The notes: generated from the letters alone by a model not told the origin. Counted from the stretch's first letter, positions 2,040 to 57,065 are shown. The stretch is DNA of 64,000 nt from an uncultured bacterium (GCA_965371805.1 CBDUZW010000005.1:28926-92925), one strand, 5' to 3'. Numbers and translations are program-made.

Positions 2040-4778
2040 TTATTCTAAATCTTTGAACATTTTAATTAAGGCCATTCTATTATCTATATTCAGTTTTTTA
2101 TATATTTTTGAGTTACTATTCCTTATGGTTCCAGAAGATATAAATAATATATCCTCAATCTCTTTATTCGTTTTTCCTTTTAGAATTAAAAACAAGATTT
2201 CCTCTTCTGTTTTAGTTAAATTATTTTTAGAACATATATTTTTAACCCTTTCCTCGAAGCGAATCTTTAATCTGATTTTTTTTATTCTGCTGCGATATAA
2301 AAAAAACATTAATATCAACACCATCGTAAGTACTAATGCTTTAAACCAGACAGTTTCCCAAAATGGAGGAAGTATTATAATCTTAACACTTGTCCCCTCT
2401 TCATTCCAATATCCGTCATCATTTGAACCTTTTACTCTAAAAGTATATTCTCCATGGGATAAATTAGTATAAGTAGCTCTTCGATTTTTATAATCAGTTT
2501 CTATCCAGTTACTATCTAATCCTTCAAGTTTATATTTATACATATTTTTCTCTGGCTGCCGGTAATTTAATGCAGAAAATTCGAAGGTAAAAATATAATC
2601 AGTATACTCCAGAGTAATCTCTTTTGTAAAATTTATATGCTGCTTCAGTTGAAATTGTTTAGAATCAACTACTTTTTTAGCAACGTTGACAGATTTATTG
2701 AACAGTAAAAAATCAGTAATTAAAACCGGTGGAATAAATTTATTATCTACAACTTTTTCCGGATCAAAAACAGTAAAACCTTCTTCCCCTCCAAAATACA
2801 GTCTGCCCAAAGAATCTTTGAATTTTGCACCATCATTAAATGCATTGCCCTGTAGCCCATCCTGTTTATCATAATTGATAAATATGCCTGTTTTCGGATT
2901 AAACTTATTGATCCCATAATTTGTACTTACCCATAGATATCCTTCATTATCTTCCAGTACAGCATGTATAATTTCATTGAGCAAGCCATTTTTTCGTCCA
3001 TAATATTTGAATGTTTTTTTTTCTCGATCAAATTTATTTAATCCGGTATCTGTTCCAATCCATAAATTTTTTCCCCTATCTTCAAAAAGATCGAAAATAT
3101 GATTGCTACTAAGACTCTGAGGATCATTAATTTGATGTTGGAAAGTGGTGAATGTTTCTGTTTTTTTATTATATTTATTAAGTCCGCCACCGACTGTTCC
3201 TATCCAGATTATACCATTAGAATCTTCAAGAACTGACCAGACATAAGGGCCACTGAGACTTTTTGGATTATCCGGGTCAAAATTATAAGAGGTGTATAGA
3301 TCCTTTTTTTGATCAAATTTATAAAGACCATCACCATCAGTTGCAATCCATAGAGTCCTTTTTGTGTCTTCAAAAACTTGAGTAATCCCCCTTGCAGGAA
3401 AATTATCATGATATTGAATTTTATTAAAAATTTCTTTCTTATTATCAAATTTATAAAGACCATTAAAAGCGCCTACCCACAGATCTCCTTTTATATCTCC
3501 ACTAATACTATAAACATAATTATTGTTTATGTTTTTATTATTATTCGGCTGAAATTGATATAGCTTAAATTTCTCTAAATTTAAATCAGTTTTATTAAGA
3601 CCATTAGATGTTCCTATCCATACATTTCCATTTATACCTTTATAAAAAGAACTAACTGATTTACCACTAAGGCTATTGGCACTATCTGCTTTTTGATTAT
3701 ACTTCGAAAAAAGCATTTTTTTTTTATCAAGTATATTTAGTCCTCCACCATATGTTCCAATCCATAAGATTCCTTCTGCATCTTCAAAAATTGAAGCAAT
3801 GGAATTATTACTTAGACTATCAAGGTTGGCAGTTTGGTGTTGATATTTTGTAAATATTCCCGTTTTTCTATCAAATCTATTAAGGCCGCCACCATATGTT
3901 CCGATCCATAAAATGCCCTCTCTATCTTTAAAGACGGATAATACAAAGTTGTTGCTGATGCTTCTGAAATTTTTAGGGTTCGCTTTATAATTGACAAATG
4001 TGCCAGTAGATGTGTTTAACTTACTGAGCCCACCCCCCTTAGTACCAATCCACAAGATACCTTTCGCATCCTCAAAAATAGATAATACAGGATAATACTC
4101 ATTAATCTTATGTTTATAGTGAGTGAATGTCTCTTTATTTTTATCAAATCTATTGAGACCGCCTCGAGTACCAATCCATATATATTCCCTGCCTTCAAAA
4201 ATATCTCCAATTTCGTCATTATTGAGACTATTAGGATTATCAGCACTATGTTTATAATGTATGAACTTTTCCTTTTTTGTATCAAATTTATTAAGACCGC
4301 CGCTAAATGTTCCAATCCATAATATACCGTCTTTATCTACAAGAATTGAGCTGATAAAATTATTACTGAGACTGTTAGGATTATTCTTTTGGTGCCGATA
4401 ACTTAAAAAAGTTTCACTTTTTTTGTCAAATCTATTAAGTCCGCCACCATCTGTTCCAATCCATAGGATACCGTCTTCATCTTCACAGAGGGCAGTAATG
4501 TAGTTTTTTGTTAGACTAGTATTATCATCAGAGTTATGACGATAGATGGTAAACTTATACCCATCATATTTATTTAATCCATCCATTGTTCCAAACCACA
4601 TAAAACCCTGTTTATCCTGAATGATACAGTTAATGTCTACCTGTGATAGACCATGCTCGATTGAAATCCTTTTGAAATAGTTAGTATCTTTTTTTGCGAG
4701 AGAAAAAACATTTATAAAAATAAATATATAAATTATAAAAAATATTTTACTCTGCCTGTTTCCTGCTATATTTATCAT
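2040..4778 (-). CDS. Transmembrane one-component regulator: Reg_prop repeats + Y_Y_Y domain + TM + C-terminal LuxR/GerE-type HTH
   Basis: 912-aa ORF with about 14 repeats of the motif (D)G.LWIGT..GGLN.FD. It has a Y_Y_Y-like segment (LEYTDYIFTFEFSALNYRQPEKNMYKYKLEGLD...GEYTFRVKG), a TM (ALVLTMVLILMFFLY) and a C-terminus TEEEILFLILKGKTNKEIEDILFISSGTIRNSNSKIYKKL (LuxR HTH). There is no kinase domain. Confidence 0.75.
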   Translation of the reverse strand: MINIAGNRQSKIFFIIYIFIFINVFSLAKKDTNYFKRISIEHGLSQVDINCIIQDKQGFMWFGTMDGLNKYDGYKFTIYRHNSDDNTSLTKNYITALCEDEDGILWIGTDGGGLNRFDKKSETFLSYRHQKNNPNSLSNNFISSILVDKDGILWIGTFSGGLNKFDTKKEKFIHYKHSADNPNSLNNDEIGDIFEGREYIWIGTRGGLNRFDKNKETFTHYKHKINEYYPVLSIFEDAKGILWIGTKGGGLSKLNTSTGTFVNYKANPKNFRSISNNFVLSVFKDREGILWIGTYGGGLNRFDRKTGIFTKYQHQTANLDSLSNNSIASIFEDAEGILWIGTYGGGLNILDKKKMLFSKYNQKADSANSLSGKSVSSFYKGINGNVWIGTSNGLNKTDLNLEKFKLYQFQPNNNKNINNNYVYSISGDIKGDLWVGAFNGLYKFDNKKEIFNKIQYHDNFPARGITQVFEDTKRTLWIATDGDGLYKFDQKKDLYTSYNFDPDNPKSLSGPYVWSVLEDSNGIIWIGTVGGGLNKYNKKTETFTTFQHQINDPQSLSSNHIFDLFEDRGKNLWIGTDTGLNKFDREKKTFKYYGRKNGLLNEIIHAVLEDNEGYLWVSTNYGINKFNPKTGIFINYDKQDGLQGNAFNDGAKFKDSLGRLYFGGEEGFTVFDPEKVVDNKFIPPVLITDFLLFNKSVNVAKKVVDSKQFQLKQHINFTKEITLEYTDYIFTFEFSALNYRQPEKNMYKYKLEGLDSNWIETDYKNRRATYTNLSHGEYTFRVKGSNDDGYWNEEGTSVKIIILPPFWETVWFKALVLTMVLILMFFLYRSRIKKIRLKIRFEERVKNICSKNNLTKTEEEILFLILKGKTNKEIEDILFISSGTIRNSNSKIYKKLNIDNRMALIKMFKDLE

Positions 4779-12436: not shown

Positions 12437-13693
12437 TTGAATAAAAAATTTATTTTAATGATCTTTTTTTGTGCATTAGTATTTTTGCCAACATATACAT
12501 TTGGGGATAATACTAAAAACAGTAAACCTGAAGATGAGATTATTGTACTGAAAAAAGAGATAAGGGAGTTAAAACTGATACTTCAGAAACTATTGCAAAC
12601 TCTACCTCCTTCTCAAACAGAAAAATTTTCACAAATCATTAAGAAACTAGAAAAATCCTTAGAGAAAAAAGAAAACAGGGAAGTCAACTCTGATTCTACA
12701 AGGAAAATCAACAGGTTAAAACAGAAGATCGAAGATGTAAAAGAAGAGCTAAAAGAGCTGAGTGGCGGCGTTCAGTTCAGTGGCTTTTTTGACGTTTCTG
12801 TCTCTACCTACAAAAACAATCCAAATATTTTTGCTCTTGGAGATTTTGAGCTTGATATTGAAAAATCATTTGGAGAAAATTTCCAGGTAGCTGCTGCGCT
12901 GGTTTTTAATGATGATGGTGCAGAACTGGCAGTAGGATTTATTGATTTCCATCTCTTTGGAGGAGCTATAGCTGCTCGTGGTAGATTGTTCACACAAAAG
13001 GGACTTCATATTCAAATCGGCCGATACGATGTCCCCTTTGGAAACGACTGGCAGTATTATGCTTCAGTAGACAGGAAATCTATAACTGCACCCCTGACGA
13101 CTGAGTTTGTCATGGATGGTGGATATAATGATGTTGGTTTACGTATTCTTAGAGGAGCAGTATCTCATAATTATACCCTATACATGTTAAGAGGAATTGA
13201 AGAAGGGTTCTCTTTTGGGGGCAGATTTGGATTAACACCTTTTAACAACCCATATTCTTTGAAGAAGAAAGAATTACAGCAGCTGGAACTTGGTATTTCC
13301 TATATATATGACCAGGGACGTGATGGAAACCGTGAAGAAAAAGCCCTTGCATTTGATTTTGAGAGTGCTATTGGACCGTTTCATTTGCGTGGCGAGTATA
13401 TGAAGAGAGACAATGATATTGATGGAGTTTACTACTCCGGCTTTCATATTTCAGCAGTAATGGATGCAGGAAAAATCATCGATATACCAATAACTCTTTT
13501 TGGTCGCTATGACTGGTTTCAAAGTGAATTAAATGATGTGGAAGAGAAGAATGTCTTGAGCAGGATAACTGCCGGGCTTCATTTTGATCTATTCGAAATT
13601 GCTGTTTTAAAATTTGAATTTCACCATTTTCTTCAAGATAACGAAGAATTTGAAGGAAATTCATTTTTTGCTCAAATAGTTATTACCTTTTAG
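12437..13693 (+). CDS. Outer-membrane beta-barrel (porin-like) protein with N-terminal coiled-coil
   Basis: Signal peptide. Heptad K/E-rich coiled coil at residues ~30-110. Alternating-hydrophobic beta-strand pattern. C-terminus ...FFAQIVITF with a terminal Phe, the OMP signature. Confidence 0.45.
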   Translation: MNKKFILMIFFCALVFLPTYTFGDNTKNSKPEDEIIVLKKEIRELKLILQKLLQTLPPSQTEKFSQIIKKLEKSLEKKENREVNSDSTRKINRLKQKIEDVKEELKELSGGVQFSGFFDVSVSTYKNNPNIFALGDFELDIEKSFGENFQVAAALVFNDDGAELAVGFIDFHLFGGAIAARGRLFTQKGLHIQIGRYDVPFGNDWQYYASVDRKSITAPLTTEFVMDGGYNDVGLRILRGAVSHNYTLYMLRGIEEGFSFGGRFGLTPFNNPYSLKKKELQQLELGISYIYDQGRDGNREEKALAFDFESAIGPFHLRGEYMKRDNDIDGVYYSGFHISAVMDAGKIIDIPITLFGRYDWFQSELNDVEEKNVLSRITAGLHFDLFEIAVLKFEFHHFLQDNEEFEGNSFFAQIVITF

Positions 13694-13702
13694 GAGATAA
13701 AA

Positions 13703-14191
13703 ATGTATGTAAAAAAATTATTGAGATGGTTGATTTTTATTATTGGTTTCTGCAGTTTTATTATCACCTTTAATTTTGCACAATCTGACAAAACGGTTAA
13801 AATTGATAACGAAACTGTTAAAGTCATGCCTTTTGTAAAAGATAATTCATCCTGTCTGGAGTGTCATTCATCAAATGAACTTGAAGCAAAGGGTAATGAT
13901 CTGACCAAAAGCTGTAATACTTTCTGCAATAAATGTCATAATGAAAAACTGGATGATTCACATCATAAGGTAGGAATGGAGATCAGCTTTAAGATCCCAC
14001 CAGATATTGCTCTATTTGAGAATAAGCTGGCATGTGTCTCATGTCATGATCTTAAAAACCAGAGATTTTCAAAAGAGCCTTGGAAATCACAGAGTCTATT
14101 TGGAAGAATGTTCAAGGGTAAATCAAAATATAAGTCCTATTATCTGATATTAAATAATAGGAAAGGCAAACTTTGTAAATATTGTCATTAA
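13703..14191 (+). CDS. Small membrane-anchored tetraheme c-type cytochrome
   Basis: 162 aa. N-terminal hydrophobic anchor. Four CxxCH motifs: CLECH, CNKCH, CVSCH, CKYCH. Confidence 0.65.
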   Translation: MYVKKLLRWLIFIIGFCSFIITFNFAQSDKTVKIDNETVKVMPFVKDNSSCLECHSSNELEAKGNDLTKSCNTFCNKCHNEKLDDSHHKVGMEISFKIPPDIALFENKLACVSCHDLKNQRFSKEPWKSQSLFGRMFKGKSKYKSYYLILNNRKGKLCKYCH

Positions 14192-14203
14192 TAATAAAAT
14201 CAC

Positions 14204-14755
14204 ATGGAGGAAAAAATGAGTGAAGAAAAAAGAAAAATTAAATTAATTAACAGGGACTTTCAGTATAAGTTAATGGCTAAATTTATATTAATAAATGGCT
14301 TAATTTTAGCTCTTTTTGGAGCTATTATTTATGTTTTTTTTAATAGCGAAATAGATACTAACTTAAAATCAGCTACAGCGGCCTATTCCAGTGTAGCTCA
14401 GATGCTTCTACCTATAATTGTGACTTTGTCTGTATTGGCAATATTGATCACATCAATTATAATTATTATGGTTGTATTAAATGCATCACATAAAATTGCA
14501 GGTCCACTCTTTCGCTTCAATAAAGCGCTCAATGAAATTGAAAATAAAAACCTTAAACCATATTCCAATATCAGGGCTAAAGATCAGTTAGGTGGATTAG
14601 CCGATTCGTTTTCAAAAATGACCGATGTTCTCGCTTCTGATGTTTCGAAAATGAAGGAGTTAACCTTGGAACTATCAAATACAGTTATAGACCCAAAGGG
14701 AAAAGAATTGGTTGAAGAATTGTATAAATTAATTTTAAGCTATAAATTAGACTAA
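14204..14755 (+). CDS. TM-TM-HAMP-only membrane protein
   Basis: Two TM helices (FILINGLILALFGAIIYVFF; LLPIIVTLSVLAILITSIIIIMVV). HAMP-like HKIAGPLFRFNKALNEIENKNLKPYSNIRAKDQLGGLADSFSKMTDVL. No output domain. Confidence 0.5.
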   Translation: MEEKMSEEKRKIKLINRDFQYKLMAKFILINGLILALFGAIIYVFFNSEIDTNLKSATAAYSSVAQMLLPIIVTLSVLAILITSIIIIMVVLNASHKIAGPLFRFNKALNEIENKNLKPYSNIRAKDQLGGLADSFSKMTDVLASDVSKMKELTLELSNTVIDPKGKELVEELYKLILSYKLD

Positions 14756-14770
14756 AAAAGGAGAAAAAAA

Positions 14771-15562
14771 ATGAGAAATTTTAAGACAGTGATCTATTCA
14801 TTTGTTTTAGTTATTCTGGGAGTTATGTTCTCAACAAATTTACCTGGAGAATCTAAAGTAAAAAAATCAAGTCCTGATCAGACTATAAAGCAGCTTAAAG
14901 CTGGAAATGAAAGGTTTGTTGAAGGAAAAAGTATACATCCACATACAAATTCTGCCCGTTTAAAACAGGCCGGGACAGAAAACCAGGGAGATCATGCTTA
15001 TGCAACTGTTATTACCTGTTCAGATTCCAGAGTACCGGTAGAGCTTTTATTTGATGCAGGCGTTATGGATATTTTTGTTATCAGGGTTGCCGGCAATGTC
15101 TGTGATGTAGATGAGATAGGATCAATAGAATATGGGCTAGCCCATGTAAATACTCCAGTACTTGTTGTTCTAGGCCACACTCAGTGTGGAGCTGTAACTG
15201 CTGTTACTCATGCTGTTCATGGAACTGGACATGCTTTAGAAAGAAATATTCCTCCTCTAGTAGATAATATTGAGCCTGCAGTACGCCGTGCGATATCTGC
15301 TCATCCTGATGTCAAAGGGAATAATATTATTCCATATGCCATAGAAGAAAATGTCTGGCAGGGTATTGAGGATCTGTTTATGGAGAGTCCTTCGACTAGA
15401 AATCTGGTAAAACAGGGCAAAACTAAGGTTGTTGGAGCTATTTATGATGTCGGCACAGGAAAGGTACATTGGCTGTCAGAATTAACAGTTCAAAACATAC
15501 TTAATAAAGTAAACTCCTCATCAAAAAGAGCAATGAATGCAATGGCAAAAAGTGGCCATTAG
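14771..15562 (+). CDS. Secreted beta-class carbonic anhydrase
   Basis: Signal peptide. Beta-CA zinc-ligand motifs CSDSRV and GHTQCGAV. 263 aa. About 88% identical to the N-terminal domain of the next ORF, a tandem duplicate. Confidence 0.75.
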   Translation: MRNFKTVIYSFVLVILGVMFSTNLPGESKVKKSSPDQTIKQLKAGNERFVEGKSIHPHTNSARLKQAGTENQGDHAYATVITCSDSRVPVELLFDAGVMDIFVIRVAGNVCDVDEIGSIEYGLAHVNTPVLVVLGHTQCGAVTAVTHAVHGTGHALERNIPPLVDNIEPAVRRAISAHPDVKGNNIIPYAIEENVWQGIEDLFMESPSTRNLVKQGKTKVVGAIYDVGTGKVHWLSELTVQNILNKVNSSSKRAMNAMAKSGH

Positions 15563-15580
15563 AAGTAAGGAGAGATTAGT

Positions 15581-18331
15581 ATGAAGAGTATAAATAAAAA
15601 TATATTTTTAGTTATTATGATTTTATTATTTAGTTCAACAATCTTACAACTTTTTGGGGAGAGTACATCAAAAAAACCAAGTCCGGATGAAATAATCAGA
15701 ATGTTAAAGGATGGAAACAACAGATTTGCTACAGACAAAGGAATCTACCCCAATATAAGTACAGCCCGTCTAAGGCAGGCAGGTACTGAAAACCAGGGAA
15801 ATCATGCATATGCGACTGTAATCACATGTTCAGATTCCAGGGTACCTGTAGAGCTTCTATTTGATGCAGGAGTTATGGATATTTTTGTTATCCGTGTTGC
15901 AGGTAATGTATGCGATGTGGACGAAGTCGGATCGATCGAATATGGCCTTGCACATGTAAATACTCCCGTCCTTGTTGTTCTTGGTCATAAACAGTGTGGG
16001 GATGTGACTGCTGTAACTCATGCTGTTTTTGGTACAGGACATGCACTTGAACGTAATATACCACCACTGGTAGACAATATCGAACCGGCAGTCCGCCGTG
16101 CAATCTCCGCTCACTCAGATATTAAAGGGGATAATATTATTCCTTATGCAATTGTAGAGAATGTCTGGCAGGGTATAGATGACCTTTTTATGAAAAGCCC
16201 TTCAACCAGAAATCTTGTCCAGAGTGGAAAAGTCAAGGTAGTAGGAGCGATTTATGATGTTGGGACCGGAAAGGTGGAGTGGCTTCCACAATCGAAAACT
16301 GATCAAATCCTGAGAAAGGTAAATTTGTCCTCAGGACGTGCGATTGAACCAATGGCAGGATCTGAACATAAGTCAGGAAAGGATAAAACTACTTCCCATG
16401 AAGTAAAAAGTGAACATGAAACAAAAAATGTAAGTCAGGGTACAACAAGTGCTCATAAGGAAAGCAGTTATATAAAAAAAGATATATTAAGCAAATCGAA
16501 AAGAGCCCAGAGCAGAGATTCCGGTTACTCTGCAATCACCTGGCTATTTATTTTTCTTGGAATAACATTTGCCGGAGGAATCTTATTATTTATATTTAAA
16601 GGAGGCGAGAATATGAGTATAAAAAATTTAAAAGTAGGCACCAAGATCTTTGGCATGGTATTGATAATCTTAATTTTCTTAGTAATAACTACAATAGTAA
16701 GTATAGGAAAGTTGGGTTCTATTGGCGAAGAGATAAAACAGATTGCACATGAGGATATACCTTTAATTGAGTCTATAACAAAGGTTACAATGCATCAATT
16801 GGAGCAGTCGGTCTTGTTTGAAAGGGCACTGCGGTTTGGTGAGACCAAAAACAAAGAGGGTCTCAAAGAGGCAGAAAAAGAATTCGAAAAAATTTCAAGT
16901 TTAGTTGATGAAGAAATTAAAGAAGCCGAAAAGGTGGCGGAAGAGGCAGTAAAGAAATCCTTACATCCTGAAGAAAAAAAAGAATTCGAAGATATTTCAG
17001 ATCAACTTAAGGTAATCGAAAAGGAACATGGCAATTATGAGAGACATGTTGCAGAAGTATTTGAATTTCTCAACCGGGGAGAGCTTCATAAGGCAGAGGC
17101 AAAATCTGAAAATATTGAAAAGGAAGAGAAACAGTTGAATGAGGAATTGGGGAAACTCCTAAATGAAATTGAAAAATTTACCGAAAATTCTACATTAACC
17201 GCTGAAAAAGATGAAAAAGCTGCAGTAAAGTTTATTCTAATTCTAGGTTTCTTTGCAGTAATAATTGGTTCATTGCTGGGATTTTTTATAACCAGAATGA
17301 TCACTGTTCCAATAAGAAAAGCTATGAATATAGCAGATGACCTTGCCAAAGGTGATCTGAGTATGGAAATAGTGGAAATGGGAAAAGATGAGACGGGACA
17401 ATTAATGGCATCCCTAAAACTTATGGTTGAAAATTTGAGGGGCATAGTGTTTGAAATACAGACAGCCTCTGAAAATGTTGCTTCGGGCAGTGAAGAGTTG
17501 AGTGCATCGGCTCAATCTTTAGCCGAAGGTTCAACAGAACAGGCTTCATCAGCAGAGGAGATATCCTCTTCAATGGAAGAGATGGGAGCAAATATACAAC
17601 AGAATACAGATAACGCAAACCAGACTGAAAAACTATCAACAAAAGCATCTGCAAATGCAAAGGATAGCGGGGAAGCAGTAACCGAAGCAACTTCAGCAAT
17701 GAAAGAGATAGCCGGCAAGATAAATATAATTCAGGAGATAGCCAGACAGACCAATCTGCTTGCCTTGAATGCAGCAATTGAAGCTGCAAGAGCAGGGGAA
17801 CACGGAAAGGGATTTGCAGTTGTTGCCTCAGAAGTCAGAAAACTGGCTGAAAGAAGTCAGAGTGCTGCTGAAGAGATAACCGAACTTACCAAGAATAGTC
17901 TCGGAGTTGCGGAGAAAGCTGGAGAAATGTTAAATATCCTTGTTCCCGATATTGGCAAAACAGCTGATCTGGTTTCAGAAATAACTGCATCAAGTACCGA
18001 ACAGAATCAGGGAGCGGGTCAGATCGTAAAGGCCATAAATGAGCTTGATAAAGTTGTGCAGGCTAATGCAGGTTCGTCAGAGGAGATGGCATCAACATCA
18101 GAGGAACTTTCATCCCAGGCACAGCAGTTACAATCAACAATATCATTTTTTAATATTGGCAATGAAAGATCACGAGCACAAACCTCTTTCCAGCAGAAAA
18201 GAGCCCCTCAAACTCCAGCAAGAGCAACTATGGTTCAACCTGCAAAGCAGCTGAAACCAAAAACAGGTGGAATGAAACTTGACATGGGATCAGGCACAGA
18301 CAAAGAAGATGGTGATTTTGAGAGATTTTAA
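15581..18331 (+). CDS. Beta-carbonic anhydrase domain fused in frame to a methyl-accepting chemotaxis protein (signal peptide-CA-TM | TM-4HB-like-TM-HAMP-MCP signalling domain). Alternatively two genes with no intervening stop: CA 15581..~16610 and MCP from ATG 16614
   Basis: N-terminal 250 aa duplicates the upstream CA ([14 protein letters not shown]). Then a linker, [23 protein letters not shown], and an internal AAAGGAGG-N6-ATG at 16614 giving the MCP-like start [21 protein letters not shown] ~190-aa helical periplasmic domain, TM, HAMP ([17 protein letters not shown]...), and the canonical MCP core [41 protein letters not shown]. Confidence 0.7.
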
Positions 18332-18393
18332 AAAGACTTATTGACATTTAAGGATGCAAAGTTTAAAGTATTTATTTAAAATTTATAATTAAT

Positions 18394-18424
18394 AAAAGGG
18401 TAGATATTTTGTCTGCCCTTTTTA
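18394..18424 (+). terminator. Rho-independent terminator after the MCP gene
   Basis: aaaaGGGTAGA-tattttg-TCTGCCCttttt: 7-bp stem with one G.U pair, followed by a T5 tract. Confidence 0.6.
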
Positions 18425-18439
18425 AGGAAGGAGAAAATA

Positions 18440-18928
18440 ATGGAAAAAAATGAATTAATTGATGACGGACAATTATTCACATTTATGTTGAGTAATGAAA
18501 TATATGGAATAGAAATATCTAAAGTCCGTGAGGTTATGGACTTTAAGAAGATAACAACAGTACCGAAGACGCCTGATTTCATGAAGGGCGTGATTAATCT
18601 CCGGGGAGGTGTTGTTCCTGTTATTGATCTGAGATTAAAATTCGGGATGGATGAGACAGAAAAAACCGTTGATACCTGTATCATTATTGTTGATATAACA
18701 GTTGATGGAGAAAAGACCTTTATCGGTGCTTTGGCGGATTCGGTAAAAGAGGTTATTACTATTGAGCCGGAGAATATTGAACCTGCACCAAAGATAGGGA
18801 CAAAACTCGATACGGATTTTATTAAAGGCATGGGTAAACATGATGATGAATTTGTAATAGTTCTGGATATAGAAAAAATATTTACAACAGAAGAACTTGT
18901 AGCCGTAAAAGAGATAGCTAAGGATTAA
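18440..18928 (+). CDS. cheW: Chemotaxis coupling protein CheW
   Basis: 162 aa; QLFTFMLSNEIYGIEISKVREVM...KGVINLRGGVVPVIDLRLKFG is the CheW signature. RBS AAGGAAGGAG. Confidence 0.85.
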   Translation: MEKNELIDDGQLFTFMLSNEIYGIEISKVREVMDFKKITTVPKTPDFMKGVINLRGGVVPVIDLRLKFGMDETEKTVDTCIIIVDITVDGEKTFIGALADSVKEVITIEPENIEPAPKIGTKLDTDFIKGMGKHDDEFVIVLDIEKIFTTEELVAVKEIAKD

Positions 18929-18951: not shown

Positions 18952-18974
18952 CAGGGCGTATAGAATACGCCCTG
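18952..18974 (+). terminator. Strong hairpin after cheW (CAGGGCGTA-tagaa-TACGCCCTG)
   Basis: Perfect 9-bp GC-rich stem. The downstream tract is A-rich rather than T-rich, so intrinsic-terminator function is uncertain. Confidence 0.4.
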
Positions 18975-22758: not shown

Positions 22759-25700
22759 ATGTTAAATTTTAAAAATGGAATTTTCATTTCCATGTTATTA
22801 ATGTTTTTTTTAGTTTCTAATGGAGCATCCCAATCCACATTAATGCTCACACAACCGGCCGTAAGTAAAACAAACATAACATTTAGTTATGCAAATGATC
22901 TCTGGGTTGCAGATCTGAATGGGAAAAATCTCAGACGTTTAACTTCTGCTTCAGGTGTAGAAACAAATCCATTTTTTTCTCCAAATGGCAAATATATTGC
23001 CTTTAGCGGGAATTACGATGGAAACACAGATGTATATTTGATCCCTGTAGAGGGTGGAATACCAAAACGTCTGACCTGGCATCCAATTGGAGATACTGTC
23101 AGAGGTTTTTCCAGTGATGGAAAAAAAGTGATCTTTGCGTCCAATCGTTTTGCCGCAACAAGAGGAAGAGCAAAATTATATTCAGTTTCTTTAAAAGGTG
23201 GATATCCGATGCCTTTGGAATTGCCTTTCGCAAACAAACTCACCTACAGCCCTGATGGTGCCTATATTGCCTACATTCCTTATGCAGAGGTTTATAATCA
23301 GTGGAAAAATTATAGAGGAGGAACTTATACTCAAATATGGATATTCTCTCTCAAAACTAAGAAAATTGTAAAAGTTCCCCAACCCGCGGGACGCTGCAAT
23401 GACACTGATCCTTTCTGGCTAAACGGAAAGATCTATTTTAGATCCGACCGAAATGGAGAGTTTAATCTATTCTCTTATAATGTAAAAAGCCAAAAATTAG
23501 TCCAATTAACCAGGTATAAAAAATTTCCAATACTAAATATGAATGCAAATGCTGGAAACCTTGTCTTTGAACAGGCTGGAAGAATCATAAAATATAATTT
23601 AAAAAACAATTCTTCAACCCCTATACAAATTAAAATTGCATCGGATCTGAAAGAGGTCAGGATAAGATATAGTAGTAATCCAAGGTTTATTCGTTCAGGC
23701 AGTATTTCCCCCAGTGGTGCAAGAGCTGTATTTGGATATCGTGGCGAGATAATTACCGTCCCTGCCAAAAAAGGAGATCATCGAAATCTGACAAATACAG
23801 TGTCGGTACATGAAAGATTTCCTTCCTGGTCACCGGATGGCAAAAGAATCGCCTATTTTTCAGATATGGGAGGAGAATATATACTTAAAATTGCCCCTCA
23901 ATCCGGAAAGGGTGAATCGAAAAATTATAAAATTCCAGGTGCTGGTTTTTACACAAGTATTTCATGGTCCCCCGATAATCAAAAACTTTGCTTTACGGAT
24001 AATGCCCGTAACATTTTTTGGCTGGATATTAAATCAGGAAAGATCTTAAAAATCGACAGTGAGCCTCATTATGCTCCGGGAACCTATGGATCCATGATAG
24101 GTAGATGGTCTCATGATTCTAAATGGATTACATACCATCTCAATAATACAACTAAAATGAGTCAGGTATATGTATATTCTATAAAGTCGGGAACATCTCG
24201 ATTACTAACTGATGGCCTCAGTGATATATCTGAGCCTATATTTGACCCAAGTGGTAAATACATGTACTTTCTGGTTTCTACTGATGCGGGCCCGATTAAA
24301 CACTGGTTTGAGATGTCCAATTCAGATAAGAGGATGAGCAGCACTATTTATCTTGCCACATTACAACAAAAAACACTTTCTCCTCTCGCTAAGGAGAGTG
24401 ACGAAGAATCAGTAAAGGAAAAAAAGAAAAAAACTGATGATAAGAAAAAAAAGGCAGGGAAAAAGGCAAAGAAGAAAGAAGAGTTTAAAATTGATTTTGC
24501 AAATTTGGAGCGGCGTATTATTGCCTTACCAATAAAAAAAGGAATATACTTCAATTTACAAATCGGAAAAACTGGCGATATCTACTATCTGCAGTTTGAT
24601 CCTGAAAGCCGAAGTAGTGCTTTACACCATTATTCCCTAAAAAAAAGAAAGGATGAGGTTTTAGGTTCCGGAATACGTGATTACCAACTTTCTGCTGACA
24701 ATAAAAAAGTGCTGGTCCGATACAGAAGAGGATGGTCAATTGTTCCACTTGGAAAGATTAAACCGGGAAAGGGCAAGTTATCAACAGGCAAATTTTCTGT
24801 TAAAGTTAATCCAAAAGCTGAATGGAACCAAATTTTTAAAGAAGCATGGAGAATAAACAGGGATTACTTTTATGACACCAATATGCATGGTGCTGATTGG
24901 AATGCCATGTATAAAAAATATGAAAAATTCCTTCCCCATCTAAGTTGCAGACAGGATTTGAATAGAGTCATCCAATGGATGTGCAGTGAGCTGGGTGTAG
25001 GGCATCATCGAGGCGGTGGTGGAGAATTTATAGATCAAGCTAAAAGAATCCAGGTTGGATTATTGGGTGCAGATTATGAAATCGTAAATAATAGATACAA
25101 ATTCAAAAAAGTTTACGGCGGATTAAACTGGAACCCTGATTTAAGATCGCCACTAACAGAACCTGGAGTTAATGTAAAAGCCGGAGAATTTCTTTTTAAA
25201 GTTGATGGCAAAGCAATAAAATATCCGGAAAATGTCTTTAAATATTTTGAAAACAAAACAGGTCAAATCATAGAACTATCCATCAGTTCTGATGTTCAGG
25301 GTACCAAAATTCGAAAAGTGAATATTGTCCCTGTAAACCAGGAATTTACATTACGAAATAGAGACTGGGTAGAGAAAAACCTTGCCTATGTAACAAAAAA
25401 GACCAATGGCAGAGTAGCCTATGTTTATGTACCAAATACAGCAGGAATGGGGCATACATATTTTAAACGTTATTTTTACCCGCAGAGCAATAGAGAAGCG
25501 ATCATTGTTGATGAGAGATTTAACGGCGGCGGTCAGATCGCGGATTATTATATCGATATGCTGAAAAAGGATTACAGCTGCAGTTGGGCTTACCGTTATG
25601 GAAAGGACCAGCATTCACCATCTTCCGGTATTTTCGGACCCAAAGTTTTATTAATAAATGAAATGGCAGGCTCCGGTGGAGATCTCTTCCCATGGATGTG

Positions 25701-26022
25701 GAGACAGGCCAAACTGGGTAAAATGATCGGCACACGAACATGGGGTGGACTGGTTGGCGTATTGGGATATCCGGTCTTAATGGATGGCGGAAGAATAACT
25801 GCTCCTAATGTAGGATTCTGGACTGAAAAAGAAGGATTTTCAGTTGAAAATGAAGGAGTTGCTCCTGATATAAAAGTGGAACAGACACCAAAACTTATGC
25901 TTATGGGCAAAGATCCTCAACTTGATAGAGCGATTGAAGAGGTAATGAAAGAATTGAAAAAAAATCCAGTAAAAAAACCAAAACGACCACCATTTCCAAT
26001 AAGAGGAAATAATAAAAAATAA
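22759..26022 (+). CDS. Tricorn-protease-like multidomain peptidase (N-terminal beta-propellers + PDZ + S41 C-terminal peptidase domain)
   Basis: 1087 aa. Signal peptide. TolB-like repeats (NDLWVADLNGKNLRRLTSASGVETNPFFSPNGKYIAFSGNYDGNTDVYLI). The C-terminal half has S41-like architecture. Length and order match tricorn protease. Confidence 0.75.
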   Translation: MLNFKNGIFISMLLMFFLVSNGASQSTLMLTQPAVSKTNITFSYANDLWVADLNGKNLRRLTSASGVETNPFFSPNGKYIAFSGNYDGNTDVYLIPVEGGIPKRLTWHPIGDTVRGFSSDGKKVIFASNRFAATRGRAKLYSVSLKGGYPMPLELPFANKLTYSPDGAYIAYIPYAEVYNQWKNYRGGTYTQIWIFSLKTKKIVKVPQPAGRCNDTDPFWLNGKIYFRSDRNGEFNLFSYNVKSQKLVQLTRYKKFPILNMNANAGNLVFEQAGRIIKYNLKNNSSTPIQIKIASDLKEVRIRYSSNPRFIRSGSISPSGARAVFGYRGEIITVPAKKGDHRNLTNTVSVHERFPSWSPDGKRIAYFSDMGGEYILKIAPQSGKGESKNYKIPGAGFYTSISWSPDNQKLCFTDNARNIFWLDIKSGKILKIDSEPHYAPGTYGSMIGRWSHDSKWITYHLNNTTKMSQVYVYSIKSGTSRLLTDGLSDISEPIFDPSGKYMYFLVSTDAGPIKHWFEMSNSDKRMSSTIYLATLQQKTLSPLAKESDEESVKEKKKKTDDKKKKAGKKAKKKEEFKIDFANLERRIIALPIKKGIYFNLQIGKTGDIYYLQFDPESRSSALHHYSLKKRKDEVLGSGIRDYQLSADNKKVLVRYRRGWSIVPLGKIKPGKGKLSTGKFSVKVNPKAEWNQIFKEAWRINRDYFYDTNMHGADWNAMYKKYEKFLPHLSCRQDLNRVIQWMCSELGVGHHRGGGGEFIDQAKRIQVGLLGADYEIVNNRYKFKKVYGGLNWNPDLRSPLTEPGVNVKAGEFLFKVDGKAIKYPENVFKYFENKTGQIIELSISSDVQGTKIRKVNIVPVNQEFTLRNRDWVEKNLAYVTKKTNGRVAYVYVPNTAGMGHTYFKRYFYPQSNREAIIVDERFNGGGQIADYYIDMLKKDYSCSWAYRYGKDQHSPSSGIFGPKVLLINEMAGSGGDLFPWMWRQAKLGKMIGTRTWGGLVGVLGYPVLMDGGRITAPNVGFWTEKEGFSVENEGVAPDIKVEQTPKLMLMGKDPQLDRAIEEVMKELKKNPVKKPKRPPFPIRGNNKK

Positions 26023-26095: not shown

Positions 26096-27775
26096 CTATT
26101 TATTCTTCATATTTTTCTTTTTAAGATTAGATATCAATTTTATAATAGCTAGAAAAGGCAGTAAAAATATAAAAATAATTCCTCCATAAGAAGTTACGGC
26201 AACATTTCTGTTTAAAATAAGATCCATTCCAAAGTTTGAGAATGGGTTATCATTAATGAGATAAGCCCAGGTTGATGATGGCCGGCTCAATCCTTCCTTT
26301 TTGGGATCAAAATCATCCAGAGACAGTTCCAAATCCTCATAGGTACTTTTTGATTTTTTTGTAATTATTGCAATTAATGTTTTAAATTCATTATGAACCT
26401 GATTTCTATATTGATCCAATGGTTGGACGCCTCCATATCTCATGAGATGTATCCCCTCTTTTATTGCAATTACCCTTTCAAGAAAGTTGCTCCATACTTG
26501 ATCTATATAAAACAAAATAACATATTTTTCTACCTCTCTAATTTTCTCTAATGAATTATTTTTCAGGAGTAAATCATACTTATTGGAACTCAATACTGAC
26601 ACATTAAATATACTAGTATTGCTCTTTAGAATATCTGTCCTTAGTTTCTCAAATATTTCCCTTTGCAACTCTGTGATATTTGAGTAATCCCATAGAGTCT
26701 TTCTGATCTCAAAATTATCGCTCTCTATTATTCTCTGAGCCCTGTTTATCTCTTTTGCAATAAAATGATCTGCTATTGCTTCCTGACTATCCCGGGGCCA
26801 GAATCTTTCTGGGATTATATTATCCAGACGATATCTTTTTATCAAATCATCATCCATACTAATGAAAAACTCGGATACTCCAGGATCCCCCTGCCTTCCG
26901 GCTCTTCCTCTCAGCTGATTATCAATCCGCCTGCTCTCATGTCTGTTTGTCCCGATGATATAAAGCCCACCTGTTTTAGATACAAATTTATATTCCTCTT
27001 TTGATCCAGCCCCCAGATGAATATCAACTCCTCTACCTGCCATATTGGTTGATATTGTTATCTTATAGGGTCTCCCTGCCTCAGCAATGATTTTTGCTTC
27101 CTGTTCATGGTTTTTTGCATTTAAAACACTATGAACGATATCTCTGTCTCTTAACTGCGAACTTAATAATTCCGATTCATAGACGCTTCCAGTCCCGATT
27201 AACACCGGCTGACCTTTTTCATTTATTTCAATTATTTTTTCTAATAAAGCCTTGTCTTTCGCTTCTTTTGAGGAATATATCCTATCCGTTTTATCTATTC
27301 TTCTATTTTTTTTATTAGGCGGAATTATCGTTATCTTAAAATTATAAAAAGAAAAAAACTCACTGGCAGCTTGAACAGCAGTAGCTGTCATACCTGAAAG
27401 ATTTGGATACAGTTTTACAAAATGCTGTATGGTTATTGAGTTAAATATGATTCCTTCTTCATTAATAAAAAGATTTTCTTTCAGTTCTACAGCCTTATGA
27501 ATACCATGAGGCCATCTTCTTTTATCAGCAATTCTTCCAGTAAATTGATCTATAATCTCAATTTTCCCATCCTTTATAATATAGTCCTTATCTTTTTCTA
27601 ATAATACCTTTGCATGCAGGGCTAAATTTACAGCGATAAAGGTTTTTTGGTTCTCAATGGCAAATATATTGGATATACTAAAATGTTTTTCAATCAGAGC
27701 CCAAATGCCGCATAGCTCACAATTCAGACTGGATCTTATACTGGCTAATGAAGTATTCGCAGGTGAACGATTCAA
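26096..27775 (-). CDS. secA: SecA homolog lacking the N-terminal ~300 aa (no NBD1 / Walker A); retains PPXD-NBD2-helical scaffold, with an atypical hydrophobic C-terminal tail
   Basis: HFSISNIFAIENQKTF aligns to SecA ~HFSVDEKSRQVNLTERG. RWPHGIHKAVELKE; NBD2 TNMAGRGVDIHLG...GGLYIIGTNRHESRRIDNQLRGRAGRQGDPGVSEFFISMDDDL; IRA1 LMRYGGVQPLDQYRNQVHNEF. All three frames upstream (27776-27840) contain stops. The C-terminus lacks the zinc finger and ends in a TM-like GGIIFIFLLPFLAIIKLI. Confidence 0.6.
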   Translation of the reverse strand: MNRSPANTSLASIRSSLNCELCGIWALIEKHFSISNIFAIENQKTFIAVNLALHAKVLLEKDKDYIIKDGKIEIIDQFTGRIADKRRWPHGIHKAVELKENLFINEEGIIFNSITIQHFVKLYPNLSGMTATAVQAASEFFSFYNFKITIIPPNKKNRRIDKTDRIYSSKEAKDKALLEKIIEINEKGQPVLIGTGSVYESELLSSQLRDRDIVHSVLNAKNHEQEAKIIAEAGRPYKITISTNMAGRGVDIHLGAGSKEEYKFVSKTGGLYIIGTNRHESRRIDNQLRGRAGRQGDPGVSEFFISMDDDLIKRYRLDNIIPERFWPRDSQEAIADHFIAKEINRAQRIIESDNFEIRKTLWDYSNITELQREIFEKLRTDILKSNTSIFNVSVLSSNKYDLLLKNNSLEKIREVEKYVILFYIDQVWSNFLERVIAIKEGIHLMRYGGVQPLDQYRNQVHNEFKTLIAIITKKSKSTYEDLELSLDDFDPKKEGLSRPSSTWAYLINDNPFSNFGMDLILNRNVAVTSYGGIIFIFLLPFLAIIKLISNLKKKNMKNK

Positions 27776-56700: not shown

Positions 56701-57065
56701 CTAATGCTATTAATATCATTTAAATTATTTTTAAATATTTTAAATGAGTATCCATCATATCTGTTCAAACCGTCCTCAGTTCCAAACCACATAAATCCCT
56801 GTTTATCCTGTAATACACAAAATACAGAATTTTGTGAAAGACCATTATCAATTGACAGACTATCAAATTTTATATTATTTTCCCCTTGAACAGTACAGAT
56901 AAAACCTACAAAAAATATTACAATCAAAAAAAAAAGTACTCTATCTTTTTTTCTAAGCATACAAATATAATACCTTAAAAAAAACAAATTGTTAACACTT
57001 AAATTAAAAATATTGCAAAATCCCTCTGAATTCCACCTACTACATAAATGTAAACAAAGTGACAA
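53709..57065 (-). CDS. Reg_prop/Y_Y_Y transmembrane sensor histidine kinase (HisKA + HATPase_c, no receiver)
   Basis: Likely start MLRKKDRVLFFLIVIFFVGF. About 14 propeller repeats. Y_Y_Y. TM ILVLAFLFIIFTFY. H-box LVHDLGSPLNNI. G-box SVIDEGSGVD...GTGLGLAV. Confidence 0.75.
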   Translation of the reverse strand: MSLCLHLCSRWNSEGFCNIFNLSVNNLFFLRYYICMLRKKDRVLFFLIVIFFVGFICTVQGENNIKFDSLSIDNGLSQNSVFCVLQDKQGFMWFGTEDGLNRYDGYSFKIFKNNLNDINSISNNYILAIFEDKDGIIWIGTHGGGLNRYDPQNERFEHYKNISGNPRSISGNFITCLYGDSSNTLWIGTRNGGVNKFSKIRGDFSHNKNDPLNSRSLSHNYVTSICEDKFGNLWVGTYGGGLNRYNQKNNIFDVYKSQKDNLESLSDNYIQTVFMDSHKSLWIGTALGGVNLYNSKTDQFIKFINNPIDSKSLSNNSVSTIYEDTDGDLWVGTYRDGLNRYNRKTNTFTHFKNSIKNSRSISHNSILSIVEDDSGILWIGTFGGGVNRLDLNRKKFLHFCNESDGENELSDNYIWALYEDRSKIIWIGTYLGGLNRFDRYKNKYKQYLHDPKDPYSLNNNAVVSILEDRKGVLWVGTYGGGLNMLNKETNQFVHFLSNSNDPDSLSDNLIWKLYEDKEGIIWIGTELGGLNKFDPILKKFTHYKNIPGDPTSLSHNYVLSIYNDKLNNFWVGTSGGGLNKFDVQKNKFTHFKNIQGDKNSISNNIITTIYEDKSGSLWIGTYGGLNKFDRELKKFVRFNSKNGMSNEVIYGLLEDEKGLLWFSTNLGLSKFDPKSETFKNYDQGDGLQSNEFNQGACFKRKNNEMLFGGINGFNIFKPEEIVDNQYKPEILITEFQLFNKPVDHESSLFLKNPINYTNKIVLSYKENFFSFKFAALDYRISGKSKYSYQLEGLDSEWINSGARRFVSYTNLDPGEYVFKVLGTNNDGIWNKKGAKLLITITPPFWQRIWFKGILVLAFLFIIFTFYRIRIRVIKSRLKRDHLKSELKLKKDFVAMLVHDLGSPLNNIVGYSSVLNEQPDKENIKKINNVITKSADIMLKIIDDILNVFKFESGKMILSKEIIPFQSIIEDSVSLMIPLLKNRNLQIKTEFENLQPILLDQMRMTQLVNNLLTNALKYSPKNGWITLRLNKTIKDNAVFQEFSVIDEGSGVDKASVQYLFDKYYQLKKDQISSIKGTGLGLAVARLIIEAHDGTIGYLNNFPKGSIFYVLLPVKDNYST

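Follow-up and report, generated by a model that had tools for sequence, protein, structure and literature searches.

The locus described here raises the question of whether a chemoreceptor can carry its own carbonic anhydrase (CA), and of what such a receptor would sense. In the window, which is the whole stretch of 64,000 nucleotides that was analysed, two beta-class CA genes stand in tandem, and the second runs on in frame into a methyl-accepting chemotaxis protein (MCP). The features are as follows, with TM denoting a transmembrane segment.

12437..13693, + strand, 418-aa ORF with an outer-membrane-protein look (ORF call)
13703..14191, + strand, 162-aa cytochrome with four CxxCH motifs (tetrahaem; Paired_CXXCH_1, 23.1 bits against a cutoff of 20.6 bits)
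14204..14755, + strand, 183-aa protein with two TMs, HAMP-like in its C-terminal part, 15 nt 5' of CA1
14771..15562, + strand, CA1, 263-aa ORF for a free-standing, predicted secreted beta-class CA (Pro_CA, 128.6 bits)
15581..18331, + strand, CA2-MCP, uninterrupted 916-aa ORF for a beta-CA fused to an MCP (Pfam domains, family-wide architecture)
15581..15658, + strand, putative N-terminal export signal of CA2-MCP, residues 1-26 (hydropathy)
15659..16366, + strand, CA2 catalytic domain, residues 27-262 (Pro_CA, 118 bits; AF2 pLDDT >90)
15827-15829, 15986-15988 and 15995-15997, + strand, codons of the CA2 zinc site (C83, H136 and C139, respectively)
16367..16531, + strand, linker of CA2-MCP, residues 263-317, low-complexity, K/S/T/E/H-rich and predicted to be disordered
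16532..16702, + strand, TM hairpin of CA2-MCP: TM 318-340, short basic loop, TM 352-374 (hydropathy; AF2 helices 318-340 and 352-421)
16598..16615, + strand, possible second start: internal AAAGGAGG at 16598-16605, then in-frame ATG (M345) at 16613-16615 (sequence)
16703..17233, + strand, four-helix-bundle ligand-binding domain, predicted to be periplasmic, residues 375-551
17234..17440, + strand, last TM (552-570; hydropathy) and HAMP (569-620; 36.8 bits)
17633..18130, + strand, MCP signalling domain, Pfam core residues 685-850, hairpin tip 720-756
18314..18328, + strand, C-terminal pentapeptide DFERF, which terminates a disordered tail (sequence)
18440..18928, + strand, cheW (coupling protein), 108 nt 3' of the receptor gene (CheW, 129.4 bits)

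The two ORFs and the uninterrupted 916-aa reading frame reported in the first-pass annotation were confirmed by the ORF calls, with no stop codon in the frame. CA2-MCP has the order putative signal peptide, beta-CA, linker, TM, basic loop, TM, four-helix-bundle sensor, TM, HAMP and MCP signalling domain. Its hydrophobic segments (residues 4-22, 321-339, 356-374 and 552-570, by hydropathy) fit the topology that had been claimed, namely a periplasmic CA followed by a linker and a TM, and then by an MCP made up of a TM, a 4HB-like domain, a TM, HAMP and the signalling domain. The cheW gene was also found downstream, as described before. As the extra TM is basic on its periplasmic side too, the predicted topology rests on the putative signal peptide and the MCP convention.

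The domain Pro_CA (PF00484; cutoff 25.7 bits) was matched at residues 78-232 in both CA1 (128.6 bits) and CA2 (118 bits), over the full profile (positions 1-156) in each case. Residues C83, D85, R87, H136 and C139 were present in the two copies and invariant in an alignment of 49 family sequences, in agreement with the intact zinc-ligand set noted previously: the Cys-His-Cys ligands and the Asp-Arg dyad are retained in both. The solved structure nearest to CA2 was that of Rv3588c from M. tuberculosis (2A5V/1YM3, E 2e-22). For NF011765 (PRK15219), the nearest of the NCBI subfamily models, CA1 and CA2 scored 137.4 and 123.8 bits, respectively, under the curated cutoff of 221, and are thus relatives of that subfamily and not members. 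The tandem copies are real, but their identity, given earlier as ~88%, was 75% over 263 aa and 90.6% over the 170-aa catalytic core at the protein level, and 73% overall and 80% in the core at the nucleotide level. The same codon was used at just 51% of the identical residues, which indicates that the duplication is old and has been under purifying selection. In a crude CA tree, CA1 and CA2 were sister copies. A fragment 93% identical (P0125) spans CA residues 1-183 alone, not the junction.

The N-termini of CA1 and CA2 consist of a basic n-region and a hydrophobic h-region of about 19 residues (hydropathy), which is consistent with the signal peptides claimed for both (residues ~1-27 in CA1). 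Such an N-terminal hydrophobic segment was also present in most fused homologues. The candidate cleavage sites in the window lie between LFG and ES and between LPG and ES, and family members often have AxA-like sites. The secretion of a beta-CA had been regarded as unusual. This was not supported, since GTDB species representatives contained at least 590 loci of the signal-peptide-bearing clade, most of them free-standing genes, and secretion is therefore ordinary in it. Beta-CAs with signal peptides have been noted earlier (PMC5746736).

The receptor portion was matched in Pfam by MCPsignal at residues 685-850 (108.9 bits, cutoff 34.6) and by HAMP at residues 569-620 (36.8 bits, cutoff 25), and the hairpin tip (720-756) was invariant across the family in the 49-sequence alignment. 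The sensor domain scored just under the cutoffs of 4HB_MCP_1 (21.7 against 27 bits) and TarH (18.7 against 25.2 bits). In the AF2 model, helices 352-421, 425-459, 463-498 and 502-589 (pLDDT >90) form an antiparallel four-helix bundle between the TMs, and a model of the sensor domain only had a pLDDT of 88.8. The best Foldseek matches were Vc1313, PcaY_PP, Tar and NarQ, with target TM-scores up to 0.87 and all E >0.001; these are generic four-helix-bundle sensors, and the fold search gave no hint of a ligand. Relatives of the sensor, most of them unfused, numbered 744 at E<=1e-30 in an exhaustive profile search, against 3 matches in an uninformative word-indexed search that used the sensor alone. 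Methylation-type EE/QE motifs occur in the sequence. C-terminal pentapeptides of the NWETF type are CheR/CheB docking motifs, and DFERF has the form of such a motif; x[FWYH]xx[FWYH] ended 50 of the 108 fused homologues.

Between the two halves, residues 260-317 had pLDDT <50 (AF2), and in homologues the linker ranged from 16 to 288 aa (mostly 34-118) with no conservation of sequence. A disordered, length-variable and unconserved segment fits a tether and not an allosteric connector. The TM hairpin that follows was common to the entire fused family, and its second TM (352-374) is the MCP's own first TM. At 33% GC, stop codons are expected at about 7% of codons, and an open stretch of 81 codons with a clean TM helix before the MCP start is unlikely to arise by chance (~0.002 by our own estimate).

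Of the 120 best database relatives, 108 combined Pro_CA with MCPsignal (PF00015), all with the same layout and with 1-3 CA domains, which argues against a missed stop. A genuine fusion, one of the two readings offered earlier, is therefore upheld, as the layout recurs family-wide and the che linkage is conserved: many of the fused relatives belong to che operons, as do three of the four homologues looked up. The fused relatives come from several phyla, the carriers being Desulfobacterota, Zixibacteria, Planctomycetota and Ignavibacteria-like organisms, and one of them is from the isolate Desulfopila aestuarii (DSM 18488), in which a free CA lies directly 5' of the fused gene, which has the form CA-CA-MCP. 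Ten of the best 80 CA loci from named genomes were fused as well. Both CxDxR and HxxC were kept in 145 of 145 fused CA domains, and the CA domain was the best-conserved part of the fused protein in the 49-sequence alignment. Two receptors with sensors of this family have, in the place of the beta-CA, an alpha-class CA, which is not homologous to it. Split versions also exist, with a CA gene adjoining MCP and CheW genes at two loci (L027 and L029), which suggests that the CA may act in trans. On crude trees, the fusion state changed at least nine times for the sensor and at least 18 times for the CA, which points to repeated gain or loss of fusions, and in at least 13 clades of the sensor tree the fused architecture has persisted or arisen anew. 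No paper on a CA-MCP fusion receptor turned up in full-text literature searches; the architecture is recurrent yet apparently undescribed.

On balance, we consider it probable that the locus encodes a free periplasmic CA (CA1) and a single-chain CA2-MCP, in which the tethered CA equilibrates CO2 beside the sensor and thereby enables the sensing of CO2/bicarbonate. The uncatalysed hydration of CO2 is slow relative to the timing of chemotaxis. CO2 would get into the periplasm freely, and hydration taking tens of seconds would be too slow for chemotactic comparisons made over ~1 s. The second CA, if exported as predicted, would hang by a flexible tether of ~55 residues from the extra membrane helix, which would pair with the first TM of a chemoreceptor that is in other respects an ordinary Tar-like one. 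Probably dimerised via the receptor dimer, and perhaps together with CA1, this CA would equilibrate CO2 with HCO3- and H+ at the sensor. The sensor would then read bicarbonate or local pH and relay the signal to CheW/CheA by way of TM4, HAMP and the hairpin tip, with adaptation through methylation. Here the export, the enzyme activity, the ligand and the behavioural output are all predictions from sequence. CO2/bicarbonate chemosensing is a reasonable inference, and the alpha-class CA found at the same position strengthens the case. We propose more tentatively, as a possibility somewhat short of probable, that the proteins of this family are bacterial CO2 chemoreceptors working by built-in enzymatic conversion, in which a tethered CA (beta, or alpha in some relatives) makes, from a gas that permeates membranes, the ionic ligand of a conventional sensor domain.

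An alternative that is unlikely is that the fusion in this lineage is recent and functionally incidental: a membrane-anchored periplasmic CA would be made beside a separate MCP translated from the ATG at 16613, and the receptor would sense something unrelated to CO2. A strong Shine-Dalgarno sequence and an ATG had been claimed at an MCP-typical start, and both are present, but the ATG is at 16613 and not at 16614. AAAGGAGG, with a perfect AGGAGG, lies 7 nt 5' of this in-frame ATG (M345), whereas no such Shine-Dalgarno was seen in the 13 other fused genes checked, so that it is unique among the 14 examined. Starting at M345 would give a stand-alone MCP of 572 aa, and the perfect signal could make this CA-less receptor the main product. 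However, AAAGGAGG may be there only because it encodes the loop's semi-conserved KGG, and with no stop in between, ribosomes initiating at 15581 must yield the fusion protein. Under the main reading, the internal start may add a CA-less receptor isoform. The nearest relatives of the receptor part are ordinary unfused MCPs (54-56% identity), of which P0051, P0064 and P0070 begin at or a few residues from the equivalent of M345, and no CA gene adjoins any of these three. On the sensor tree, the window sensor is likewise nearest to ordinary unfused MCPs, as a singleton among them, and CA2 is sister to CA1, so the fusion in the window's own lineage looks young. Because the sensor family is mostly unfused and its fold offers no ligand clue, the sensor may indeed detect something unrelated to CO2. 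Nevertheless, the linker and TM module is exactly that of the whole fused family and is not translated intergenic DNA, and the recurrence of the architecture in at least 13 clades is at odds with an incidental event.

It is distinctly unlikely that the CA domain is itself the sensor, with anion/bicarbonate binding or a pH-dependent change of oligomer altering the receptor packing or the TM hairpin, and with catalysis secondary or absent. Such a role would suit the closest solved relative, Rv3588c, which reportedly shifts between dimer and tetramer with pH, and the variants in which two or three CA domains stand in tandem; but the retention of all catalytic residues in the 145 fused beta-CA domains speaks for catalysis. 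In the alpha-CA fusions, the first zinc-binding His is replaced (Q in P0140, D in P0149), as in inactive CA-related proteins, so the CA fold there may bind and not catalyse. A disordered tether of variable length is nevertheless a poor membrane link for such a sensor, a complete conventional sensor domain is still present, and split pairs of CA and MCP genes exist.

That the CA is fused for its placement at the array or pole, in a metabolic or pH-buffering role that generates no signal, is very unlikely. MCPs gather at cell poles, and most of the CA clade consists of free periplasmic enzymes with no link to chemotaxis. However, MCPs are the sole fusion partners among the loci seen, such fusions have recurred with alpha- as well as beta-class CAs and within che operons, and no conserved metabolic partner genes were found near the related CA loci. 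Finally, an assembly or sequencing artefact (a stop or frameshift lost between two genes) is extremely improbable, and the earlier alternative of two genes with a missed boundary stop is rejected: although the window comes from a metagenome-type assembly and a truncated secA-like ORF elsewhere in it (26096..27775) shows sequence oddities, the fusion recurs throughout the family (108 of the 120 best relatives), the exact 916-aa product is on record in NCBI, ENA and Logan (an exact-sequence look-up placed it and CA1 on a 126-kb contig), and the junction codes for a linker and a TM, as expected.

The proposed CO2-sensing receptor can be compared with several known systems. Residues 345-916 of CA2-MCP form a complete receptor of the Tar/Tsr type (4HB_MCP_1/TarH; Tar, PcaY_PP, Vc1313), with TM, four-helix bundle, TM, HAMP, hairpin, methylation-type motifs, pentapeptide and an adjacent cheW. 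It differs in the predicted exported enzyme domain, the tether and the extra TM ahead of the receptor, and we know of no characterised Tar/Tsr-class receptor with a catalytic periplasmic module, nor did the papers searched contain one. With the Rv3588c-type beta-CAs (2A5V, 1YM3), CA1 and CA2 have the fold, the Cys-His-Cys zinc site and the Asp-Arg dyad in common; unlike these and the NF011765 enzymes, they bear a predicted export signal, and one of the two is joined covalently to a receptor. In eukaryotes, CO2 sensing with CA involves the extracellular Car4 of mammalian sour-taste cells, CAII of GC-D olfactory neurons, and fungal Nce103 with adenylyl cyclase. The logic would be common to both, as CA converts a hard-to-bind gas into protons and bicarbonate, on which a conventional sensor can act, but the proteins and pathways are unrelated, and in CA2-MCP the enzyme and the sensor are in one polypeptide. 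Periplasmic binding proteins aid chemoreceptors indirectly, as in MBP-Tar and LsrB/LuxP-Tsr. There, an accessory periplasmic protein widens the detection of a four-helix-bundle receptor, as is proposed here, but the accessory of CA2-MCP is a covalently tethered enzyme in place of a binding protein. In addition, Felce and Saier reportedly described, in 2004, SulP-family anion transporters fused to beta-CA. These likewise place a CA on a membrane protein handling bicarbonate, but the partner is a transporter and the CA cytoplasmic, whereas the partner in CA2-MCP is a signalling receptor.

If the CO2-sensing reading is true, CA2-MCP would be the first chemoreceptor known with its own ligand-generating enzyme, and a convergent counterpart of the CA-dependent CO2 sensing of animals and fungi. 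Little is understood of how motile bacteria detect gradients of CO2/bicarbonate. Both respiration and fermentation universally yield CO2, and autotrophs use it as a substrate, so that it would make a strong cue in sediments, in biofilms and in syntrophic consortia, the habitats of the Desulfobacterota, Zixibacteria, Planctomycetota and Ignavibacteria-like carriers. The CA-MCP family provides a concrete candidate receptor, including one in the cultured isolate Desulfopila aestuarii DSM 18488. The design would be general, in that an enzyme tethered to a receptor renders an undetectable molecule detectable. Moreover, the module (signal peptide, enzyme, linker and one TM before a standard receptor) looks portable and may serve biosensor engineering.

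For the genes upstream of CA1, the 183-aa protein gave weak NCBIfam matches to the TM2-HAMP region of MCPs/kinases (E 4e-7 to 7e-3) and no match to Pfam HAMP. It had been presented as a HAMP-only membrane protein upstream of the locus. That it is part of the conserved association is not supported by the data, because HMMs of this protein, the outer-membrane-like protein and the tetrahaem cytochrome had no match in the 87 related loci (L001-L087). Its membership of the system is doubtful, and the upstream genes, which have no counterpart in the related loci, are not counted in it. The other cytochrome profile matches of the 162-aa protein were weak. The ORF spacers upstream of CA1 are 9-15 nt, and the genes for the 418-aa outer-membrane-like protein and the cytochrome are possibly cotranscribed. 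No cheA was seen in the examined part of the window.

No relative was recovered when metagenomes were scanned with residues 230-420, the region of the junction. In the two relatives closest by RecQ (75% and 73% identity), the locus is absent beside recQ on their contigs, so synteny is of no help in checking the junction. The window RecQ has at most 75% identity to metagenome proteins and about 54% to those of Cloacimonadota, Calditrichota, KSB1 and other lineages. The GC content of the CA and MCP genes is slightly raised (0.37-0.40 against 0.33), which is no clear sign of recent transfer. Promoter and terminator scans of the locus gave nothing usefully above background. The sole strong hairpin of the terminator scan, at 18952-18974, was called on the minus strand; a palindromic stem at this place could close the plus-strand unit too.

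The open reading frames (ORFs) called on the plus strand of the window were closely spaced from 12437 to 18928, in the following order:

12437..13693 (+), 418-aa protein with the look of an outer-membrane protein (signal peptide, coiled-coil-like N-terminus and C-terminal Phe)
13703..14191 (+), 162-aa tetrahaem cytochrome with four CxxCH motifs
14204..14755 (+), ORF for a 183-aa HAMP-like protein with two transmembrane segments (TMs) and weak HAMP matches
14771..15562 (+), CA1, a free beta-carbonic anhydrase (CA); 263-aa ORF with Pro_CA at residues 78-232 (Pfam)
15581..18331 (+), CA2-MCP, a beta-CA (CA2) joined to a methyl-accepting chemotaxis protein (MCP); 916-aa ORF with Pro_CA at residues 78-232, HAMP at 569-620 and MCPsignal at 685-850 (Pfam)
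18440..18928 (+), cheW, following the 916-aa ORF after a gap of 108 nt

The three genes directly 5' of CA1 were separated from each other and from CA1 by spacers of 9-15 nt. The Pfam search gave zero matches for the 418-aa protein. The 183-aa product had been called a HAMP-only protein in the first-pass annotation; it was indeed a membrane protein with two TMs, but its HAMP identity was weakly supported. The two CAs had been reported as about 88% identical. The tandem pair was confirmed, but the identity was 75% overall and 91% over a 170-residue core, and many synonymous differences were found in the codon comparison.

The hydrophobic segments of the 916-aa protein were located by hydropathy at residues 4-22, 321-339, 356-374 and 552-570. 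Based on these segments, the chain is predicted to run from an export signal through a CA outside, a TM in, a short basic loop inside, a TM out, a sensor outside and a TM in, to HAMP and the signalling domain inside. Together with the Pfam domain order, this predicted topology agreed with the earlier proposal of a periplasmic CA. 4HB_MCP_1 and TarH scored slightly under their Pfam cutoffs at residues 347-537, and in the AF2 model the CA domain and the four helices of the sensor had pLDDT values above 90, compared with below 50 for residues 260-317. The sensor domain (residues 375-551) had near-invariant E, R and H positions at E414, R415, R418, H483 and E487 of the 916-aa protein. Methylation-type motifs were present in the sequence of the receptor part. 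Furthermore, the protein ended in DFERF, and a docking-type pentapeptide, x[FWYH]xx[FWYH], ended 50 of the 108 fused homologues.

The protein database search with the 916-aa query showed that PF00484 and PF00015 occurred together in 108 of the 120 relatives listed, which is the Pro_CA and MCPsignal combination that the first-pass annotation had proposed to look for. In the motif and hydropathy survey, most relatives shared a layout of a hydrophobic N-terminal signal, one to three CA domains with the CxDxR and HxxCG motifs, two adjacent TMs, about 180 or about 290 periplasmic residues, a last TM and the MCP. The source names placed the family in Desulfobacterota, Planctomycetota, Zixibacteria, Spirochaetes and Eisenbacteria. 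In the alignment of 49 sequences, the CA domain was the best-conserved part, with the zinc ligands (earlier noted as intact) and the Asp-Arg dyad invariant. The linkers of the homologues varied from 16 to 288 residues, mostly 34-118, and were not conserved in sequence. The TM hairpin was present in every homologue aligned. In addition, the 916-aa sequence was recorded identically in NCBI, ENA and independent Logan assemblies, on a 126-kb contig, and no stop codon was found in the scan of the CA-to-MCP junction of the ORF. The CA-MCP fusion is thus real, not two genes. The alternative of a stop codon missed at the gene boundary was ruled out by the family-wide layout, the identical records and the conserved hairpin.

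Tandem arrays of complete beta-CA domains were also observed within single chains. Three domains were fused to an MCP in P0001 and P0008, and two in P0002, P0004, P0012 and others, while P0044, P0049 and P0026 were free-standing double or triple CAs. The window pair of CA1 and CA2-MCP resembles the two-CA version divided over two genes. The pairing is mirrored in Desulfopila aestuarii DSM 18488, where a free 260-aa CA lay directly 5' of a CA-CA-MCP gene.

Complete che operons enclosed three of the four homologues looked up, and the fourth stood alone. The CA-domain profile scan of GTDB species representatives detected this CA clade at no fewer than 590 loci. The best 80 comprised 10 intact CA-MCP fusions, one broken fusion and about 65 free-standing CAs of 250-360 aa. 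Accordingly, exported beta-CAs of this type are, judging from their signal peptides, common. The earlier view that a secreted beta-CA is unusual does not hold for this clade, and beta-CAs with a signal peptide have been noted previously (PMC5746736). Free CAs adjoined cheW or MCP genes at three of the best 80 loci (L013, L029 and L049). At a further one, a Melioribacteraceae MAG (L027:5074-8800) encoded a free 263-aa CA, 70% identical to CA1; a gap of 29 nt separated it from the gene for an 801-aa MCP, whose sensor domain was different and longer, and cheW came next. The order in a Pirellulales MAG (L029:5332-9373) was cheW, CA, cheW and an MCP with 4HB and a CZB zinc-binding domain. These two loci are split versions of the association. 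The broken locus, L050:5929-8987 from an uncultured delta proteobacterium MAG, contained, within a che operon, a 725-aa ORF with a CA and then, in different frames, two short pieces of MCP signalling domain. Frameshifts, due to sequencing error or in a pseudogene, have probably broken up a fused gene here.

No counterparts of the three genes directly 5' of CA1 (outer-membrane-like, cytochrome and HAMP-like) were found in 87 related loci (L001-L087). The 12.4-18.9 kb cluster may be an insertion or variable region, because the whole of it was absent beside recQ in relatives with RecQ 73-75% identical (L088, L089/L090). The DUF6340 gene 3' of recQ appeared conserved in L088.

An alpha-class CA (PF00194, E about 1e-37 to 1e-40) took the place of the beta-CA in the N-terminal extensions of two representatives recovered with the sensor profile, P0140 (912 aa) and P0149 (1244 aa). 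These chains ran from a signal and the CA through a long His-rich linker and two TMs to the sensor, and were otherwise laid out like the beta-CA fusions. The catalytic competence of both is uncertain, because two of the three zinc-binding His were kept but the first was Gln in P0140, as aligned to solved bacterial alpha-CAs, and Asp in P0149. The grafting of two unrelated CA folds at the same site of the same receptor family is hard to explain otherwise than by a role in CO2/bicarbonate chemistry. The tethers of P0140 and P0149 and the window linker (16367-16531) were rich in His, Lys, Ser, Thr and Glu, with His very abundant in the alpha-CA fusions. Proton buffering or metal binding by these tethers is conceivable.

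The MCP half of the window protein (residues 345-916) was closest to the unfused MCPs P0051, P0064 and P0070, with 54-56% identity, compared with just 42-50% to the corresponding halves of fused proteins. The start of each of these three MCPs coincided with the counterpart of M345, an in-frame Met of the 916-aa protein, or lay at most a few residues from it, and none had a CA neighbour. The exhaustive search with the TM-sensor-TM profile gave 744 cluster representatives at E<=1e-30. The best 150 were mostly unfused; in about a dozen the N-terminus was extended by roughly 340-550 residues, and in about 20, including P0102, P0131, P0147 and P0157, by 100-180 residues. No recognisable domain was found in the ten shorter extensions that were scanned with Pfam. 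In P0102, the sole one inspected by sequence, a signal peptide was followed by low-complexity sequence and the TM hairpin. The short-extension receptors look like CA-less stubs or carriers of a small module of undefined kind. In the neighbour-joining trees, which are crude, the window sensor was a lone fused tip amid unfused ones, and CA1 and CA2 were mutual closest relatives. Fused and free states were interspersed; the minimum number of changes between the two was 9 on the sensor tree and 18 on the CA tree. Crude as the trees are, they clearly point to gain and loss of the fusion on repeated occasions.

A Shine-Dalgarno sequence and ATG had been noted at the MCP-typical start. Both were present, but the ATG was at 16613 rather than 16614, with AAAGGAGG at 16598-16605. 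This perfect Shine-Dalgarno with an in-frame ATG in the hairpin loop was found in the window gene only and was absent from the 13 other fused genes examined. It may be the relic of a second start, or one that still yields a CA-less receptor. Another possibility is that it reflects the AAA GGA GGx codons for a semi-conserved KGG in the loop. A recent incidental fusion, with the working receptor made from the internal start, would fit the family-wide pattern less well than enzyme-assisted sensing, but may apply to the window gene.

Enzyme-assisted sensing is the most likely function of CA2-MCP, in view of the conserved catalytic residues, the floppy tether, the complete sensor kept, the split CA/MCP gene pairs, the replacement of the CA class and the che-operon linkage. 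The tethered CA, possibly partnered by CA1, would equilibrate CO2 with bicarbonate and protons beside the four-helix-bundle sensor. The sensor would detect one of the products and signal via HAMP to CheW/CheA. The kinetic argument for an enzyme is that uncatalyzed CO2 hydration takes tens of seconds, against about a second for a chemotactic comparison. CO2 sensing dependent on Car4, CAII and Nce103 offers a parallel. The fold search showed a generic likeness of the sensor to the Tar, PcaY and NarQ bundles, which gave no ligand clue. The CA domain itself might be the direct sensor in the window protein, but this fits the family-wide pattern less well. Mere localisation of the CA to the receptor array also fits the family-wide pattern less well. 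An assembly artefact fits that pattern less well too.

Both the CA half and the MCP half are from well-known families, and some homologues have already been auto-annotated as 'methyl-accepting chemotaxis protein/carbonic anhydrase'. No description or test of a CA-MCP receptor was found by full-text search of the literature, with one key review outside the search. These receptors make bacterial CO2 chemotaxis directly testable.

The GC content of the window was 33%. Its Reg_prop/Y_Y_Y sensors and Tricorn-like protease recall the FCB group, and an affiliation with that group is a guess based on such genes. A SecA-like ORF of 558-565 aa at 26096-27775 (-) started within the preprotein cross-linking domain and lacked the N-terminal ~250 aa, including the first nucleotide-binding domain. 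No upstream ORF of at least 80 aa continued the reading. A truncated copy, a pseudogene and an assembly join are all conceivable. The window also encoded a protease and three large Reg_prop/Y_Y_Y beta-propeller sensors; among the sensors, one had no recognised output domain, one had a LuxR-type HTH and one had a histidine-kinase output:

2040-4778 (-), Reg_prop/Y_Y_Y beta-propeller sensor
22759-26022, Tricorn-like protease
40364-42940 (+), Reg_prop/Y_Y_Y beta-propeller sensor
53709-57065 (-), Reg_prop/Y_Y_Y beta-propeller sensor
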